A model generated the notes under the pieces. The model was given only the letters and a program-made list of their open reading frames with translations, was not told where the DNA came from and ran no database searches. Below, piece by piece: positions 3,274-64,000 of a DNA stretch of 64,000 nucleotides (positions are counted from its first letter, which is position 1; each line of letters starts with the position of its first letter). The translations under genes were made by a program, and so were the position numbers. The DNA is from Eledone cirrhosa (lineage: Eukaryota). The DNA is taken from the NCBI GenBank assembly GCA_964016885.1, contig OZ024740.1, positions 53,754,001-53,818,000 of the forward strand, in the 5' to 3' direction.

Positions 3274-3307
3274 AACCAATAAACGTCTTTATATATATAT
3301 ATATATA

Positions 3308-4023
3308 AAGAATTAGTATATCTACCAACATATTTATACAGAAGTATACTTACGCTAGCAAGATATACGTTTTGACTTAGTAACTTTGTGGTTCAATACA
3401 AAAATGTAGAACAATTATATGAAAGACGTAAAATAAGAAAATTCTAATAATTAACTTAATTTCTTAAGTTTCACTCCAACTACTTAGTTTCTGAAAAGGG
3501 ATATACATAGTGTTCAAAACTATGGAGAATCCTTTCTTCATCAGGGAGTCAATTCTCGGCTAAGATCCCTGGCGATAGGCGGACACAGGGAGATCATACA
3601 AAAATAATTCAGTGAATGGAAAAAAAGCAAGCGCCGACTAAATTTCAAGACACTGAAAATTTCACTGCATTCCTGGTCAGTGGCAAATTTAAAAGAATCA
3701 ATCACGTGACATCGAGGTTAATCAGTGAGGAGTAGGGTTTTAAAAAGTCAGTAGCCAAAATGTTACTATGAACCATAGTAGTAATTTAGGCAAATTTTTG
3801 CTCAACAAAATAATATGGAGGTAATTATAAAGAATTAGTATATCTACCAACATATTTATACAGAAGTATACTTACGCTAGCAAGATATAGGTTTTGTCTT
3901 AGTAACTTTGTGGTTCAATACAAAAATGTAGAACAATTATATGAAAGACGTCCCCTTTCAGAAACTAATTAGTTGGAGTGAAACTTACGTAAGTTAATTA
4001 TTATAATTTTCTTATTTTACGTC

Positions 4024-4030
<7 letters not shown>
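3308..4030 (-). mobile_element. Family C non-coding element: 522-nt head-to-tail unit plus inverted arm
   Basis: GAATTAGTATATCTACC occurs at 3310 and 3832 (period 522); 3952-4030 is an inverted arm; HHR-like CTGATGA on the minus strand near 3539-3545. Homologous to 14147-14957 and 55891-56316. Confidence 0.8.
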
Positions 4031-14146: not shown

Positions 14147-14950
14147 GAATTAGTATATCTACCAACATATATATACAGATGCATACCTATGCTAGCAAAT
14201 ATATAGGTTTTGTCTTAATAACTTAGTGGTTCAATGCAAGGGGATGCAGAAGAATTATATGAAAGACGTAAAATAAGAAAATTATAAAAATTAACTTACA
14301 TACTAAAATTTCACTCCAACTAATTAGTTTCTGAAAGAGAATAAACATGGTTTCCGAATGGAACACATGGAGAAGGCCTTTCGTCATCAGGGAAGTCTAT
14401 TCTCAGCTTATTTTACGTCTTTCATATATTTGTTCTGCATCCCCTTGCATTGAACCGCAAAGTTATTAAGACAAAACCTATATATTTGCTAGCATAGGTA
14501 TGTATCTGTATATATATGTTGGTAGATATACTAATTCTTTATAATTTTCTCCAAATTATTTTGTTGAGCAAAAAGTTGCCAAAACTGCTACTATAGTTCA
14601 TAGTAATAGTTCGGCTACTGTTTTCTTAACACCCCACTTCTCACTGATTAACCTCGATGTCACGTGATTGATTCTTTTGAATTTGCCACCGACCAAGTAG
14701 GCAGTGATTTTTTCAATGACTTGGAACTTAGTCCTCGCTTGCTTTTTTCCATCCACTGAATTATTTTTGTATAAGTTCCCTGTGTCCACGCATTGCCTGG
14801 GAACTTAGCTGAGAATAGACTTCCCTGATGACGAAATGCCTTCACCATGTGTTCCATTCGGAAACCATGTTTATTCCCTTTCAGAAACTAATTAGTTGGA
14901 GTGAAATTTTAGTAAGTAAGTTAATTTTTATAATTTTCCTATTTTACGTC

Positions 14951-35632: not shown

Positions 35633-36301
35633 ATATATATATATAAAGGTTTAGGAAGCTAGCCGAAAACGGCATCAGCGGGCGCCACTTACTTACTCAA
35701 TGATATTACAAGATGTGTACGTTAGAAATACAAACGTATAACACAGCGTGCACACATAAAATAAACGGCTACGTGTGGGTAATGTTCTTTGTATATCATA
35801 AGTACCCAGACTGTCGACTGTTTCCGAGCGACAGTATGTTCATAATTGTTCCAACTGCACTGACATTACGTATGTGCGTGAGTTTTGTTTCTTACACGTA
35901 ATAATCACTCACAATTAAAAACTGTTTTTCTTCAAAATTGAAGGAAGTAAAATCTTTCGTAGACTGTGCGAAGACCCGCCCGAATATTTATGCACATGCA
36001 TATATGCTTCTGTTCGTATCTGTATTTATACTTACACCGGTAAAATAACTGGTGTTATTTGTGTCTTTTCATTTGCAGTAACTTAGTGGCTCAATGAAAT
36101 AAGTACCTGCATGAAATATGTAATGTAGTATATGTGATCAACTAAATATATAAAATCCATGCCTCAGAGTAGGAGCAGTCGAAAGTTGTGTACGTTTGTC
36201 ATTTAGCCTTTATGATAAATATTTATAAGGAAGATAGTTTCGGCATATGTCTTCCTGGATATATTTTTTCATTATAATGTTTTTGAGTGATGACATGCAT
36301 A

Positions 36302-36392
<91 letters not shown>

Positions 36393-36404
36393 TATATATA
36401 TATT

Positions 36405-38400
36405 AATTTATTAAAATAACAGATTAAAGTTTAAGCAAAGAATCGCTGCTTTCACCCTTAACGGGATCTTCTGAAACTAACAAAGTCAATCTGTAAACGC
36501 AGAAGTGGATATTTCAAAAAACGTTGCCACCGGAGGAAGACAGGAAGACGATACTTTGGTTCGTGGTAACATTCGCTAGCAAAGAACGGGAAAAAACGAA
36601 AATAATACGTCATTAATAGGAGCGGAGAAAAACAATTACGCGCAAAGACAGAACCACGTTTATGGTATAAAAGAAGTCGTAGACTAATATTCTATTAGGT
36701 GGTTCATAGAGATGTTCTCTGGCAATGAACGAAAAAAACGAAGATAATGCGTCATATGTGGAGCGTGGAGAACAATAGCACGCAAAGACAAAACCACGTA
36801 AATGGTACAGCAGGAGTCGTAGACTAAAATTCTAACTAGGAGACCGAATGAATCTCCGCTACAGAGTTAAGAACAAAGTAAATAAATACAATACAGAAGT
36901 AATAGAAATAAATAAATACATACACGCAAACAAATACGTACATACACAAGCATACGCAAAACACTTACCATAGGTATACAAAACCACGCACATATAAATA
37001 TGTGTGTGTGTATGCGTATATACAAATAAATAAATAATTATATAAACGTATATAAATAAATAAATACGTATATAACAAGCGCACACACATATCTACAAGT
37101 AAATAGACGAATGTTCGGAGACGTAAGTCAACCAAAACATGAAGTACACATATACACACACCCTACATACGTACGAACATGCATACTCATACAGACGCAA
37201 AACTCCCGTATACACATAGCCAAACCATATGTACCAGAATATATAAAATTATACGCCATAACATAAACAATCAGATATACGTACGAGAAGGTATACTTAC
37301 CTTCACAAAACATACGGGTAATATATACTTACCTATGCAAATAAATAATGGTATAAACAAAACATATACCTAGCTCCCACATCAAGACGTAAAATATCCA
37401 CGTATTGATCGTACTATCCGTTAGGGTATAACGTAGGGCTGTAATACAGGAAAGTTTTGTGCAATTTATGTTTACAAGCCGAAATTGCCTCAGATTTTTT
37501 GTTTAAGATGTGGTCTGTGGCGTACAGTATTTCCAGGGCCTCAGCGGCGCAGAGGTCACATGGTCTTTTATTTCCGTTATACGATCTAGACCTAGCTAGG
37601 ATCTCCCAGTGTAACATATATTGGGTGTGGTTGTCTTTTAAACTCCAGATATAAGCTGAAAGTGACGTTATATTCCTTCTTAGAGGGTAACGAAAAGAAT
37701 GGGTATGCATGTAAAGACGCTGCTTGAATCTATTGGCGGTTAACCCTATGTAGGCCCTACGGGACGTGGGTGTTACAACCTTACATTTGTAGACAATGTT
37801 ACTAGAGAGGCATTTCCCGGATAGGGGGCAATCAACCCGATTCCTACAATTACAGTTAGTACTAACTACAGGGTTGCACGTGTTCCTATGGCTAGGTAGT
37901 TTAGCTAAATTTGAAGCTGTGATGTTATGTGCAAGGTTAGGAGTCGTAGAGTAAGAAATTTTAATAGTATTTCTATTAAATATTTTACTATATTTATGTG
38001 TAGGGGGGAAATGCTTCGTAATAAGAGAAAGAAAGATCTTAGCTAATGGTGTGGCCACCTCCATATTATATGGTGGGTTATACCAACAAATGCGACGGGA
38101 TCTATTTCTTCTAGGTCTATTTTCGTACTCTGTATATGCTACCTTATCGACAAATCCACTTCGAGCAAGAGCTTCATAGTAATAAGTGGAATGGTCGTTG
38201 AAAATACGCTCGTTGGTGGAAAGACGGGAAAGCCTCAACGAAACGTTTCTTACCAGGTTCTTGGTTATGCTGGCAGTATGGTTGGAATGCTTACTTATGT
38301 AATTAAGCGTATCATTCGGCTTTCTATACGGGTAATACAACCCATTCAATAAATTGAGGGTAACGTCGAGGTAATTAACGACCGAGAGATTGGCCTCAAC
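36405..38400 (-). mobile_element. Penelope-like element, family A (ORF 3' part, 3' UTR and pLTR ending in (TA)n)
   Basis: The ORF is followed by a UTR with a ~143 bp tandem duplication (36580-36840) and the pLTR segment CAGAAGATCCCGTTAAGGGTGAAAGCAGCGATTCTTTGCTTAAACTTTAATCTGTTATTTTAAT. The same segment recurs at 1431-1520, 4565-4612, 12980-13046 and 58575-58860. Confidence 0.85.
37414..38400 (-). CDS. 5'-truncated Penelope-like element ORF: RT C-terminus/thumb, Cys-rich linker and GIY-YIG endonuclease
   Basis: Uninterrupted frame VEANLSVVNYLDVTLNL..YRKPND..YISKHSNH (PLE thumb), WYNPPY, CNCRNRVDCPLSGKC linker, NIVY..AYIGLTANRFKQRLYMH (GIY-YIG), CDLCAAE..ILNKKSE. The frame extends 17 codons upstream of the listed ORF to 38400. 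Confidence 0.92.
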   Translation of the reverse strand, partial: VEANLSVVNYLDVTLNLLNGLYYPYRKPNDTLNYISKHSNHTASITKNLVRNVSLRLSRLSTNERIFNDHSTYYYEALARSGFVDKVAYTEYENRPRRNRSRRICWYNPPYNMEVATPLAKIFLSLITKHFPPTHKYSKIFNRNTIKISYSTTPNLAHNITASNLAKLPSHRNTCNPVVSTNCNCRNRVDCPLSGKCLSSNIVYKCKVVTPTSRRAYIGLTANRFKQRLYMHTHSFRYPLRRNITSLSAYIWSLKDNHTQYMLHWEILARSRSYNGNKRPCDLCAAEALEILYATDHILNKKSEAISACKHKLHKTFLYYSPTLYPNG

Positions 38401-38492
38401 CTGTTAATCGCTGACAATTCGCATCAATATATATGTATCTGTATGGTTCTTCAGTTGAATAGGAGGTTAATTATATGTAAAAACATTGATAA

Positions 38493-38539
38493 TGCTCCGA
38501 GGACACCAAGCTTAAGTTTGGAAGAAACAATTGTCAGCG
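38493..38539 (+). ncRNA. Hammerhead motif, family N (U4C)
   Basis: TGCT-CCGAGGA-CACCA..TGGAA-GAAA-CAATTG-TC-AGCG. Confidence 0.65.
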
Positions 38540-38724
38540 ATTAAATGTTTTAAACATAATTTGATACTTGTGTAATCTATATAACTGCTCTGTAAAACAA
38601 CTGATGTTCTTACATTGAGCTATTTCTCTTACTGGTAATAAGGTAGTAATAAATTACTGACCTTCCCTGTTTATAGTTGTTTATATTATAGTTTATACAT
38701 AACTATAAATAGTATCTTTAATAT

Positions 38725-38913: not shown

Positions 38914-39064
38914 TATGTATGCTTATATATGAGTTATATAAATATAAATATTGAGGGTAGTACAATTAGCAGTAAGAGAAAAGGATCAATGTGAATTATC
39001 AAATGTATTACAGAGCCGAGATACAAAACATAAAACAATCAAATTTTAGTTTAATACATTTAAT

Positions 39065-39110
39065 TGCTGACAATTGTTTCTTCCAGACAAATGTCTGGAT
39101 CATCGGAGCA
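39065..39110 (-). ncRNA. Hammerhead ribozyme, family N (U4C)
   Basis: TGCT-CCGATGA-TCCAGAC(ATTT)GTCTGGAA-GAAA-CAATTG-TC-AGCA. Confidence 0.75.
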
Positions 39111-39996: not shown

Positions 39997-40043
39997 AACA
40001 CCGATGATTCCAGACATTCGTCTGGAAGAAACAATTGTCGGCA
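39997..40043 (+). ncRNA. Hammerhead motif, family N (U4C), stem I disrupted
   Basis: CCGATGA-TTCCAGAC(ATTC)GTCTGGAA-GAAA-CAATTG-TC; perfect 8-bp stem II. Confidence 0.6.
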
Positions 40044-40201
40044 ATTAAATGTATTAAACTAAAATGTTATTGTTTTATATTTTGTATATGTATATATATA
40101 GAGAGAGGTAGAACACTGGAAGGTAATATCCGTGGTGGTAGAGTACTCAGTCCATGGGACGACTTTGTTGGAGTAGTAACACAACAGTTAGTTCACCATA
40201 C

Positions 40202-40239
40202 CGAGAACAATTGTTTCACTTTAGCGGATCTTCAGCTCG
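40202..40239 (-). ncRNA. Minimal type I hammerhead (family H) in fold-back 40104-40310
   Basis: CGAG-CTGAAGA-TCCGCTAAAGT-GAAA-CAATTG-TT-CTCG; GUU triplet, weak stem II. Confidence 0.7.
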
Positions 40240-40338
40240 TACTGGTGAAGATCCTCTAAGGTGAAACAGTTGTTCTCGGTATGGTGAACTAGCTGTTGAG
40301 TTACTACTTCTATATATATATACATATATATATATATA

Positions 40339-44819: not shown

Positions 44820-44862
<43 letters not shown>

Positions 44863-44870
<8 letters not shown>

Positions 44871-46150
44871 TTTACATATATATATACGTACACATACATA
44901 TACGTGTTTTGCAACTAGTCACTTTGTGGCTCAATGAAAAATTAATAAATTAAACAATCAGAGCTATATATCATAAAACATGTCTATAGAATCACAAGAT
45001 AAAATATATACTACTTCCTCTCCCAATTAGTATAATTAACTATATAAAAAATCGAATAAACCAGGCTATACGAATGAGGCTTCTATGAAGGAATCTCCGA
45101 TATATTATTACATATAAAAGTTTACATATATATATATACATACACATACATATACGTGTTTTGCAACTAGTCACTTTGTGGCTCAATGAAAAATTAATAA
45201 ATTAAACAATCAGAGCTATATATCATAAAACATGTCTATAGAATCACAAGATAAAATATATACTATTTCCTCTCCCAATTAGCATAATTAACTATATAAA
45301 AAATCGAATAGACCAGGCTATACGAATGAGGCTTCTATGAAGGAATCTCCAACAAATAACCAAAACTAGCGCTTCGCGTCGGCCGTAGTGGAATATTTAT
45401 CGAATATTTCGACAGCGTAATCGCCTAGATACAGTCAACTAAGCAGAATTAGGTTTAAAATAAACTAGGAGAAAACAGAATACATTTAAATACCTCTACC
45501 ATGGTTTCGTCCGTGTTTTGAGTTTTCCAATAATTATGTAATAATTATATAAACTCGAGCGCCTGATTCTTCAGGAAGCTCGCTCAAATTCAGGAAGCTC
45601 GTTCAAATTTTCCAAAACGATCGCGCCAAGAATTCATTTCAAAATGGCTAAAAATCGCGACGTAGTCGCGGTCAAGTTGGAAGGGGTGTGGTAGTTGCTT
45701 ACGACTGGTGGCATTTTTGCTAGAAAGCACAGCACAATACAGCCAAATTTGTATCTCAACCTAGTGGGAGATTATTACATATAAAAGTTTACATATATAT
45801 ATATATACATACACATACATATACGTGTTTTGCAACTAGTCACTTTGTGGCTCAATGAAAAATTAATAAATTAAACAATCAGAGCTATATATCATAAAAC
45901 ATGTCTATAGAATCACAAGATAAAATATATACTATTTCCTCTCCCAATTAGCATAATTAACTATATAAAAATTCGAATAGACCAGGCTATACGAATGAGG
46001 CTTCTATGAAGGAATCTCCAACAAATAACCAAAACTAGCGCTTCGCGTCGGCCGTAGTGGAATATTTATCGAATATTTCGACAGCGTAAACGCCTAGATG
46101 CAGTCAACTAAGCAGAATTAGGATTCTATAGACATGTTTTATGATATATA
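44863..46150 (-). mobile_element. Family O non-coding tandem element (667-nt monomer) with short inverted arm
   Basis: ATTATTACATATAAAAGTTTAC at 45104 and 45771; partial copy 44863-45098; inverted arm GATTCTATAGACATGTTTTATGATA at 46122. Confidence 0.85.
45492..45579 (-). ncRNA. Type I hammerhead (family O), extended stem II
   Basis: GCTTC-CTGAAGA-ATC..GAGTTT..AAACTC..GAC-GAAA-CCATGG-TA-GAGGT; GUA triplet, palindromic stem III. Confidence 0.7.
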
Positions 46151-46274
46151 TATATATATATATATATAGTGGTGGGACACTGGAAGGTAATATCCGTAGT
46201 GGTAGAGCACTCAGTCCAAGGGATGAGTTAGGTAGAAGTGGTTACCACTTATATATATATATACATGTCGTTGG

Positions 46275-46510
46275 CGAATATATAAAACCTCAAGCAATTT
46301 GAACATAAGGAGCCTGACAAAAATCCCTTTATTTATATCACAGACAGATCGATAACCTATCGTTCCCTAGGGATATATAAAACTTCAAGCCACTTAAACA
46401 TAAGGAGCTTGACCAAAATCGCTTTTATACATATCACTGACGGGTCGATAGAATATCGTTTCCTAGGGATATATAAAACCTGAAGCAACTTAAGCATAAT
46501 TAGCCTTGCA
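46275..46510. repeat. Diverged ~96-bp tandem repeat (2.4 copies)
   Basis: TATATAAAAC(C/T)T.AAGC at ~46279, 46374 and 46470. Confidence 0.8.
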
Positions 46511-54949: not shown

Positions 54950-55815
54950 ATTGTTATACTTTGGGAGGGTCATGTTGCCAATAAGAAACACACGCACCAG
55001 TCGTTTCACTTCAATTTATTATAATAAATTTATAAATTTAGGAATTTATAAATTTCTGGTTGGTTGGTTGGTTCCACAACCAGATAGTTGTTTATATATT
55101 GTCAAAGTTCTTTCGTCACACATTCTGTGACCTCTTCAGTGACTGGGGATTCTTTTCTTTGTTTTTGTGCCTCTCCTTTGTTCTGTCCTACGTCATTTTG
55201 TTTCTGTGTGTGTGTTGTGTGCTCAGTCTGCGCATGTGCCACATCCGGGTGTCTGTGTGTGTTTATATTCGTTTATTTATTTGTTTATTTACATGTTACC
55301 GGTTGGTTGTTTGTTCTATGTGCGTGTGTGTTTTCATTTTGTCCGTAATTGTAAGTTGTGATGTTGCTGTTCCACTTATATTTTCTATTTAATTTTGGTT
55401 ATAATTCTTTTATGTTTATTGCCTCTGTGATTTGTCTAAACATTGCGTCTTTTCTGTGTGTAGATTCTATTTTTATTTCTATGTTCTCTAATTTACCCTT
55501 ATGTTCTATTTTAGCATGTTGGTAGAGTACAGATGATTCTTTACTATCTTGAAGTTCTCGCCAGTGTTCATTTATCCATTTCCCTACACTACGAGCTGTC
55601 TCACCTATGTACACTATAATTTTGTCTCTTGTGGAACCAACCAACCAACCAGAAATTTATAAATTCCTAAATTTATAAATTTATTATAATAAATTGAAGT
55701 GAAAGCAACTGGTGCGTGTGTTTCTTATTGGCAGCATGACCCTCCCAAAGTATAACAATATCGTTTTCAACACACGTTTTCAGATAAAGAATCTTGCTAA
55801 ACAAATTCAGAAACG

Positions 55816-62269: not shown

Positions 62270-64000
62270 TATATCTATCTATCTAAGGCGGGTAAAATTC
62301 CCGAGATCCATGGACGAGTTCTCTCCAGCGGTCTCTGTCCCTCATTATCGCTGCCATATCCTGCATCTCCAACAGACCAGTGTCTGTCCTTAGGGCATCA
62401 ACATATGTTAACCTTGGTCTTCCTCTTCTAGTGTGTCCATGTAGGGGCTCCCAAAGGAGCACTGAGTGCAATGTCAACTCTGGATGTCGGTGAGCATGTC
62501 CAGCCAATCTCAGTCTTCTCTGTGTCACTTTTGAGCTGACTTTTGGGATGCTCCCATACAGCTCTGAGTTTTTCATCCTCAGTGTATACTGATTAATGTT
62601 CAGAGCCATCCTCAGCATTCTCGTGTAGCACCCATCCACCATCTGAGTGAGTCTCTTGGTCAGTGTCCAAGTCTCAGACCCATACAGCAGCACAGACTCC
62701 ACTACAGCAATGAAGAGGCGGATTTTCAGTCTCTACGAAGGTCCGACTTCCACACCGACCTCAAGCTGTGACACGCCGCCCAGGCCTTGCTCTTCCTCTC
62801 AACCACATCATCCTCCGTATTACCAATCTTTGCTCCCAAATACAGGAAGTCCTCAACCAATTCCAGCGGCTTCCCGCCTACATTAGTGATCCCCTCTGGC
62901 TTCTCAACATTCTCTACCAGATATTTTGTTTTAGTCTCATTCATTCTCAGCCCCACACTCATCGACACAGTCTCAACCTCCCGCATCAAATCCTCTGCCT
63001 CCTTCACTGTATTTGTCACCAAAACTATGTCGTCGGCAAATTCAGCATCCGATACCTTTTTCGCCCCAACTCTCCTGCTCTGAGCCGGTGCTACAGTAAA
63101 GCCAGAGTCCTGGTGTTTCTCCAGTGCAAGGCGCATACAATAGTCCACTACGATGATAAAAAGGTAGGGAGCCAATGTATCTCCCTGGAGCACTCCAGCC
63201 AGTATCTAAAAGAACTCTGTCATCCCATCAGGTGTAATGACTTGGGCTTTGGTGTTGGTGTAGAGCAGTGATATCAGGTCCACTATCCTCTTGGGGATTC
63301 CATAAGCCTGTAAGATCTTCTTCAGGCAGTAACGGTCCACAGAAACAAAGGCCTTCCTAAAGTCAATGAAAACCATGACCGCAGGAAGGCACTTTGCTCT
63401 AGCTCCCTCTAATATCCTCCTCAGCATCAGGATGTGACTGGTGGTTGATCTACCCTCTCTGAAGCCGTTCTGGTTGTCCCTGAGCTTCTTCTCCATCTCA
63501 GGCTGGGTCCTGTTAAGAATCATCCTGTTGAGGGTCTTTGCCACAAGTGACGTCAGTGAGATCCCCCGGTAGTTGTTGGTGTTAGAGAGATCTCCCTTCT
63601 TTGGCACTGGGACGATGTTACTGATCCTCCACTGATTCGGGGCAACTCCTTTCTCCAGTGCCCCGTTACAGAACCCCAGGAAGATTTCATCAAAATCACA
63701 CCTCTTCATCACCTCTGATGCCACTCCATCCTCTCCATGAGCCTTGCCCTCCTTGATCTTCTTTTTGGCTCTCTGAAGCTCCTCTCTGGTGAAGGGCTCT
63801 GTGTCAACATCCAGTTCCTCAAACAGCCGCCTGATCTCCCCAGTGCTCTGGGCTGTGGAGGGTGGCTCTCCTAGTAGGGTCCTAAAATGGTCTAGCCATT
63901 TCCACTTCCTATCCTCGGGCACCGTTCCCTGGATCTGACTCGAACACCTTTTCTTCCTCCCTGTGATCTCGTTGATGATCATCCAGCTCTCCTTACATCC
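62270..64000 (-). mobile_element. Young RTE-type non-LTR retrotransposon (RT domain and C-terminus), running off the window end
   Basis: VPVPKKGD..NYRGISL, QNGFREGRST, FIDFRKAF, GVLQGDTLAPYLF, FADD, FLYLG, LLYGSETW, RRLRLAGH, RRGRP, DRDRWR. One in-frame TAG at 63206 and one frameshift near 62730 split the ORF; (TAGA)n tail. Confidence 0.93.

Follow-up and report, generated by a model that had tools for sequence, protein, structure and literature searches.

A dispersed, protein-less hammerhead repeat of Eledone cirrhosa, probably copied from both cut target strands by a borrowed Penelope-like enzyme

Animal non-LTR retrozymes, as described in the cited parts of two reports (PMC7229834; bioRxiv 10.64898/2026.07.22.740005), are non-coding, GC-poor, dispersed tandem repeats of 51–972 bp with a type I hammerhead ribozyme, arranged in arrays in which each of two units has a ribozyme, and are proposed to move through circular RNA with the help of Penelope-like elements (PLEs). 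PLE insertions comprise partial tandems, an inverted 5′-truncated copy and a 30–40 bp tail that is often present at one end only (Craig et al., PMC8557442, sections cited here). For the Neptune and Nematis PLEs, the corresponding sections of PMC8557442, PMC3846280 and PMC4209133 add a microsatellite target and a hammerhead with a palindromic helix III, a form that is predicted to act as a dimer (Cervera and de la Pena, PMC4209133). In the anole Poseidon element PAc, the tail is the stretch between two internal reverse transcriptase (RT) start sites, both target strands are cut and extended, and a dimer is predicted; its starts have no target homology, and no strand difference in start site is reported in vitro in the cited portion of the study (Frangieh et al., PMC11167929). 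Chlamys MRC1 represents ORF-less PLE derivatives with multicopy head-to-tail insertions; according to the same sections of PMC8557442, Chlamys and Naiad have no hammerheads of the canonical kind and usually show 3′-end similarity to their helper. Both the tandem, inverted and tailed insertion of PLEs and the mobilisation of retrozymes are named as open questions in these sources (PMC8557442; bioRxiv 10.64898/2026.07.22.740005, in the parts cited).

The window analysed here, a stretch of 64,000 nucleotides of the Eledone cirrhosa genome, contains one copy of a dispersed ORF-less family that combines traits of these systems. Unit positions are numbered so that window position 45104 is unit position 1. 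The features of the locus are as follows.

44822–44862: (TA)n target microsatellite, left flank
44863–45098, minus strand: partial unit 1, 236 nt, unit positions ~9–247, starting at site A (distal RT start, tail-bearing end)
45099–45103: five extra bases at a private jump from position 247 to ~1
45104–45770, minus strand: full unit, 667 nt, without an ORF, 35% GC
45112–45217, minus strand: tail of ~105 nt, bounded by start sites A (~45112) and B (45217)
45213–45216 with 45181–45184: 4-bp stem in the tail, adjoining site B on its 3′ side in the RNA
45492–45579, minus strand: type I hammerhead motif
45575–45579 with 45492–45496, minus strand: helix I
45568–45574 and 45505–45508, minus strand: hammerhead core, with helix II extended
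45498–45505, minus strand: palindromic helix/loop III
between 45497 and 45496, minus strand: predicted cut (unit position 393/394)
45567/45509, minus strand: A-C at pair 10.1–11.1
45564, minus strand: private mismatch that breaks a helix II pair (1/30 aligned rows)
45570–45607: private 19-nt tandem duplication adjoining the ribozyme core
45608–45770, minus strand: CpG-richer segment, conserved in the sister subfamily and a possible internal promoter
45768–45772 with 45753–45757: 5-bp stem ending the CpG-richer segment, just 3′ of the next unit's site A
45771–46122, minus strand: partial unit 3, positions 1–350, stopping short of the ribozyme
46122–46150, plus strand: inverted arm, 29 nt, positions 142 to 114, with its outer end at start site B
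46144–46168: (TA)n target microsatellite, right flank

The layout proposed in an earlier note on this DNA, with a partial unit, a full 667-nt unit, a second partial unit and an inverted arm running into (TA)n, is borne out; the inverted arm measures 29 nt, is a 100% reverse complement of positions 114–142 and has one base in common with the direct arm. Any target-site duplication would be masked here, the flanks on either side being (TA)n. The copies are as alike as that note had it (the units are 96–98% identical to one another), and the reported absence of an ORF also holds: on both strands around the unit, the longest stop-free frame has 56 codons and the longest from a Met has 26, and an RT plus GIY-YIG ORF is absent from the element. 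The 667-nt unit with a hammerhead is correct for this locus, where the motif lies on the minus strand at 45492–45579, and does not extend to the family, in which the typical unit is 659 nt (L027/L275); the greater length at this locus results from the private 19-nt duplication and a longer TA run. Just to the right of the locus, at 46278–46506, a 96-nt unit is repeated in tandem 2.4 times at 82%; it is unrelated in sequence.

The family is alike retrozymes in being non-coding, GC-poor (35%), tandem and dispersed, with a type I hammerhead, and its 659-nt unit falls within their size range. It differs from them in that most insertions span 0.1–2 units and carry a single ribozyme, in its extended helix II and in the prevailing A-C at 10.1–11.1; for this family, which is known here from DNA, we also document ends at two fixed sites, inverted arms and insertion into (TA)n. 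With the Neptune and Nematis PLEs it shares the partial tandems, the adjacent inverted 5′-truncated copy, the one-end tail, the microsatellite target and the palindromic-helix-III hammerhead predicted to work as a dimer, whereas it has no RT/GIY-YIG ORF and its tail is ~105 nt instead of 30–40. It is like PAc in that two internal RT start sites delimit the tail, both target strands are extended and cleavage is maybe dispensable; unlike in PAc, both starts are TA-like and match the target, and opposite sites are used at the two ends. It is alike Chlamys MRC1 as an ORF-less PLE derivative with multicopy head-to-tail insertions. The family is best filed as an animal non-LTR retrozyme, that is, a non-autonomous PLE-mobilised element for which cleavage and circles are predicted, and we are confident of its being a non-autonomous, PLE-mobilised element.

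A search of the 3.0-Gb genome with a 451-nt query returned 2,484 candidates, the best 40 at 95–96% identity, and two short exact patterns gave 1,069 (a 20-mer) and 1,205 matches genome-wide with none for the reversed controls; the second pattern also picks up a few copies of other families. A position-ordered sample was formed from all loci behind the first 100 exact matches of one pattern. These comprise 71 loci, with the window's own locus counted in, and 70 distinct ones, L268 and L269 being one duplicated insertion (at 211.83 Mb and 212.30 Mb, with identical flanks and 475 kb apart, a segmental duplication); scaling from 100 matches to 71 loci suggests at least ~750 insertions. A sister subfamily, 73% identical and built alike, has a 657-nt unit, and a third relative is present in L056. 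Assembled contigs from four of five sequencing runs (the kind of library is not stated) contain the family, and none of them crosses the locus or the jump; three contigs under a second organism label (run X4) match parts of the unit at 90–100%. Literature on this family, or a counted opposite-site rule of the kind given below, was not found in a search that lay outside subscription journals, Repbase/Dfam and supplements.

Other hammerhead families are present in the window. One, also ORF-less, occupies 3290–4030 (minus strand, core at 3544); it has more-than-unit length, an inverted cap, opposite start sites and a short tail motif in common with this family, with further copies near 14230 and 56131. 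A segment with the same tail motif, at 35680–36300, adjoins a Neptune-type element. Hammerhead-like motifs in which C replaces U4, with a palindromic loop III, are found in inverted arrangement at 39060–39110 (minus), 40000–40060 (plus), 38480–38540 and 40200–40300, the last being a fold-back, and further hammerhead-like cores lie at 14390 (minus) and 14825 (plus), as an inverted pair, and at 55139 (minus). A frameshifted LINE reverse-transcriptase fragment spans 62283–63271 on the minus strand (Pfam RVT_1, E 1e-10).

Insertions of the family begin at two fixed sites ~105 nt apart, site A at position ~6–9 and site B at position 114, both of which are TA-like stretches that merge into the (TA)n flank. 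As the ribozyme strand is minus, left ends represent RNA 3′ ends; a hand count over the 71 position-ordered loci assigned 51 left ends to site B and 17 to site A, with three interrupted. Outer ends are fixed and inner ends are scattered across the family. Two-armed insertions have site A at one end and site B at the other in 20/20 scorable cases of the position-ordered sample, seven of which have short caps read by eye, with approximately eight more two-armed or ambiguous loci unscorable; under equal and free use of the sites this outcome has a chance of 1e-6. The sister subfamily uses opposite sites in 11/11 scorable insertions. The tail is found at one end only in the same 20/20 and 11/11, and the exception to both patterns is L052, a near-perfect B/B palindrome from the similarity-ranked set. 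Partial tandems with fixed 3′ ends and variable 5′ truncation, plus an adjacent inverted 5′-truncated copy, are likewise present in the family, and the ~105-nt stretch between sites A and B is the Penelope-like 'tail' footprint. The pattern drawn in the earlier note is the known Penelope-like combination of tandem, inverted and tailed insertion, a name absent from that reading, and the ribozyme of this copy is predicted to misfold.

In all families examined, each start site is followed within a few bases, on its 3′ side, by a short stem. It is part of the predicted fold in the sister subfamily, the third relative, another family of the window and the second of two Neptune-type families described below, and lies outside the predicted fold at site B of this family and in the first Neptune-type family. 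Judged without a chance control, the stem is a lead for a putative RT-binding module.

The minus-strand type I hammerhead has a helix I of 5 bp; at the gathering score, Rfam gave 0 matches in the window. In seven aligned copies, 94% of cells are paired and both-sided changes occur in helix I and at 10.1–11.1, in an alignment whose shuffle test is inflated by kinship and in which the L056 row is misaligned in helices II–III; the helices covary between the subfamilies. A typical copy co-folds into a double hammerhead (a predicted dimer), and the copy at this locus folds otherwise. The 10.1–11.1 pair, reported as a highly conserved G-C (PMC4209133, section cited), is predominantly A-C here (60 of ~120 listed contexts), with A-U and G-C as the rarer forms, while the sister subfamily has G-C; cutting may therefore be weak. 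Several hammerhead families of the genome also have mismatches here; in the third relative's ribozyme, on the minus strand of L056, it is U-U and loop III is replaced by a run of ~18 G. The two-ribozyme criterion for animal non-LTR retrozymes excludes the present locus, which has a single damaged ribozyme, and includes other loci of the family, such as L027, L039, L230, L262 and L263. With one ribozyme and an extra helix II mismatch, the copy at this locus is likely a dead end.

A member of a candidate helper family lies in the same window. At 36403–38720 on the minus strand is a 5′-truncated Neptune-type PLE between (TA)n runs, with a 329-codon frame at 37414–38403; it belongs to a young family with intact 713-codon frames at 96–98% identity and 52,308 first-look candidates. 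A reduced hammerhead-like motif is found near 36470 in this element. A second Neptune-type family has intact 714-codon frames at 93–100% identity. Both frames comprise an RT, a Cys finger and, at the C terminus, a GIY-YIG-like end, assigned from motifs read by eye and from the architecture given in the cited part of PMC8557442; Pfam did not recognise them. The assignment of the window frame to Naiad was dropped, its endonuclease being C-terminal. Both families have two end sites against (TA)n, spaced by ~90 and ~65 nt, with comparable short stems just 3′ of all start sites; most of the inverted copies seen use opposite sites, with L126 as a B/B case that has a duplicated flank. BLAST found no DNA similarity of the unit to either of the two families, so there is no helper match of the Chlamys kind among the two examined, and at least two further PLE families are seen as fragments in the genome. 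In L022, L066, L258, L265 and L013, this family or its sister is nested, by way of the target they have in common, in the (TA)n that terminates Neptune-type elements. A helper of the Neptune type is likely.

Whether the arms of an insertion have a common origin was addressed by a haplotype comparison of 227 segments from 112 loci at 25 polymorphic sites, in which the pairs are not independent. Discordance was 2.9% between tandem units of one locus (87 pairs), 3.9% between inverted arms (48 pairs) and 36.8% between loci (21,694 pairs), and shared rare variants per kb numbered 5.6, 3.7 and 0.19, respectively. As an internal control, separate insertions that lie next to each other in L204 and L054 proved discordant. 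The low discordance within loci indicates that both arms very probably derive from a single RNA or source locus. In long arrays, some internal units are near-identical (0/538, 0/488 and 1/539 differences), pointing to later duplication, conversion or assembly collapse on such arrays.

These data are probably best explained by a dispersed protein-less hammerhead repeat for which a borrowed Neptune-type PLE copied one RNA, presumably a circle, from both cut strands. A source locus with at least two units would be transcribed from the minus strand; two hammerheads would pair through the palindromic helix III and cut weakly, and the 659-nt piece would then be ligated. The PLE protein would nick both (TA)n strands, after which the two target ends would anneal by a few TA bases, one to site B and the other to site A. 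Two cDNAs would grow towards each other, stop at random and be joined, yielding a direct arm joined to an inverted one and a tail confined to one end. At this locus, the arm begun at site A would have been extended by 236 nt, begun again close to site A of the same RNA and made 1.5 turns before meeting the 29-nt arm from site B.

The nature of the template was examined through the ends of 82 arms, which were taken by hand (short caps, L259 and L269 were excluded, and two interrupted arms have assumed starts). The mean stopping rate is ~1 per 540 nt. Among the arms that reach position 350, 51/62 pass the cut site at 393/394 and 12/16 pass it a second time, and positions 389–398 contain 0 indel columns in 1,262 and no excess of mismatches across the cut site. 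As most arms pass the cut site free of indels, cut linear monomers are not the main template, which leaves a circle or an uncut multimer. A circle would account both for the lack of a fixed 5′ end and for the stable unit length, and on balance we slightly favour it as the main template. A viroid-like, rod-like circle was rejected, the circular fold having z = -0.3 against 30 shuffles.

The main competitor retains the PLE-mobilised element and replaces the circle, which would be unneeded, with an uncut linear multimeric read-through RNA, the hammerhead being weak or acting later; we give it a substantial minority share of belief. It draws on the dominance of A-C at 10.1–11.1 in the most amplified form, on the existence of multi-unit loci as possible sources, on the anole PLE, for which uncut RNA was the dominant template in vitro and ribozyme mutants still inserted (PMC11167929, in the part cited), and on frog retrozyme dimers, 8/9 of which did not cleave when tested (bioRxiv 10.64898/2026.07.22.740005, in the part cited). 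A linear template should however show a hard stop at a fixed 5′ end, and none was found in the 82 arms or the genome-wide end counts. A pile-up at a candidate transcription start near 553 was not confirmed, as four loci end there, compared with none at one control, six at the cut site (391–396) and, by a rough estimate, ~3 expected. Daughters of a linear multimer would also shrink with no means of regaining length, yet the unit has kept 657–659 nt across 27% divergence, and no consistent recurrent unit-specific variants were found, in a comparison of weak power.

Fold-back self-priming or an antisense template, a model put forward for Penelope elements of rotifers (PMC3846280, in the section cited), is an improbable source of the inverted arm. 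Such a model explains the near-perfect B/B palindrome of L052, and a shared arm haplotype also fits copying of the first cDNA; it does not explain the opposite-site rule. In its simple version both ends would fall at the same site, whereas 9/20 insertions have a long arm from B and an inverted arm that ends at A, with the tail beyond the outer end of the long arm, and the arms join at differing unit positions.

Copying of cut linear monomers with repeated RT jumps, from 5′ end to 3′ end at the cut site, is more improbable still. Arm ends are in excess at 350–395 (16 against 6.4 expected, in an interval picked afterwards), so some templates could be linear; ends are absent at 406–450, and six loci end at 391–396 genome-wide. 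Many of the ends at 350–375 may however reflect a pause at a hairpin, and most arms continue through the cut site with neither indels nor excess mismatches. Arm ends are also in excess at 136–225, a TA-microhomology-rich stretch.

The head-to-tail junction itself is general. The 667-to-1 junction is crossed in 30/30 loci from a query spanning it, in 28/30 loci from a query that does not span it and by 40/82 arms of the position-ordered sample; the refuting condition set in the earlier note, a junction confined to this locus, is thereby not borne out. It is an arbitrary point on a permuted unit and no special joint. The 247-to-1 joint has one exact match genome-wide, at this locus, in an exact search that would miss variant joints, and a jump as a family trait was rejected on that basis. 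The jump lands ≤8 nt from start site A (~1–2% by chance) and its joint lies between short inverted complements; unit 1 differs from units 2 and 3 at 0/5 polymorphic sites and has one rare variant in common with them. We lean towards copying begun anew close to site A of the same RNA, with a skip, or a repair deletion, between the short inverted complements and a second insertion as possible alternatives. The earlier note's idea that a circular or multimeric ribozyme RNA was reverse-transcribed fits the data, while the special joint gives way to an arbitrary junction and the template jump, seen once genome-wide, is no pattern. It is scarcely credible that the local structure arose by tandem duplication or deletion of a dispersed repeat at the DNA level, without an RNA template for the tandem: the unique joint between short inverted complements could be a repair deletion and some internal units elsewhere are homogenised, but the exact, genome-wide 667-to-1 junction, the fixed outer and scattered inner ends, caps that obey the opposite-site rule and the landing of the jump so close to site A speak against it, and as the origin of the family it is largely refuted.

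Returning to the circle, a more specific version can be put forward tentatively, at somewhat less than even confidence: a PLE RT dimer may bind one small circular RNA at a pair of matching modules, each a TA-like start site with a short stem after it, prime one strand at each and roll from both sides. Each stem lies 3′ of a copying start, so under this arrangement only a more-than-unit copy would transmit the stem.

The kind of element and its qualitative footprint were already known, and the locus itself is a damaged copy. What the family adds are genome-scale constraints on such insertions, namely one start site per end, arms of one haplotype and no stop at the cut site. For an in vitro test it also supplies a 659-nt template, natural core-pair variants (G-C, A-U and A-C) and two enzyme candidates that are intact. 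If the two-module circle is true, pseudo-LTRs, inverted arms and the one-sided PLE tail would follow from one mechanism, and retrozymes would be circles that mimic the modules.
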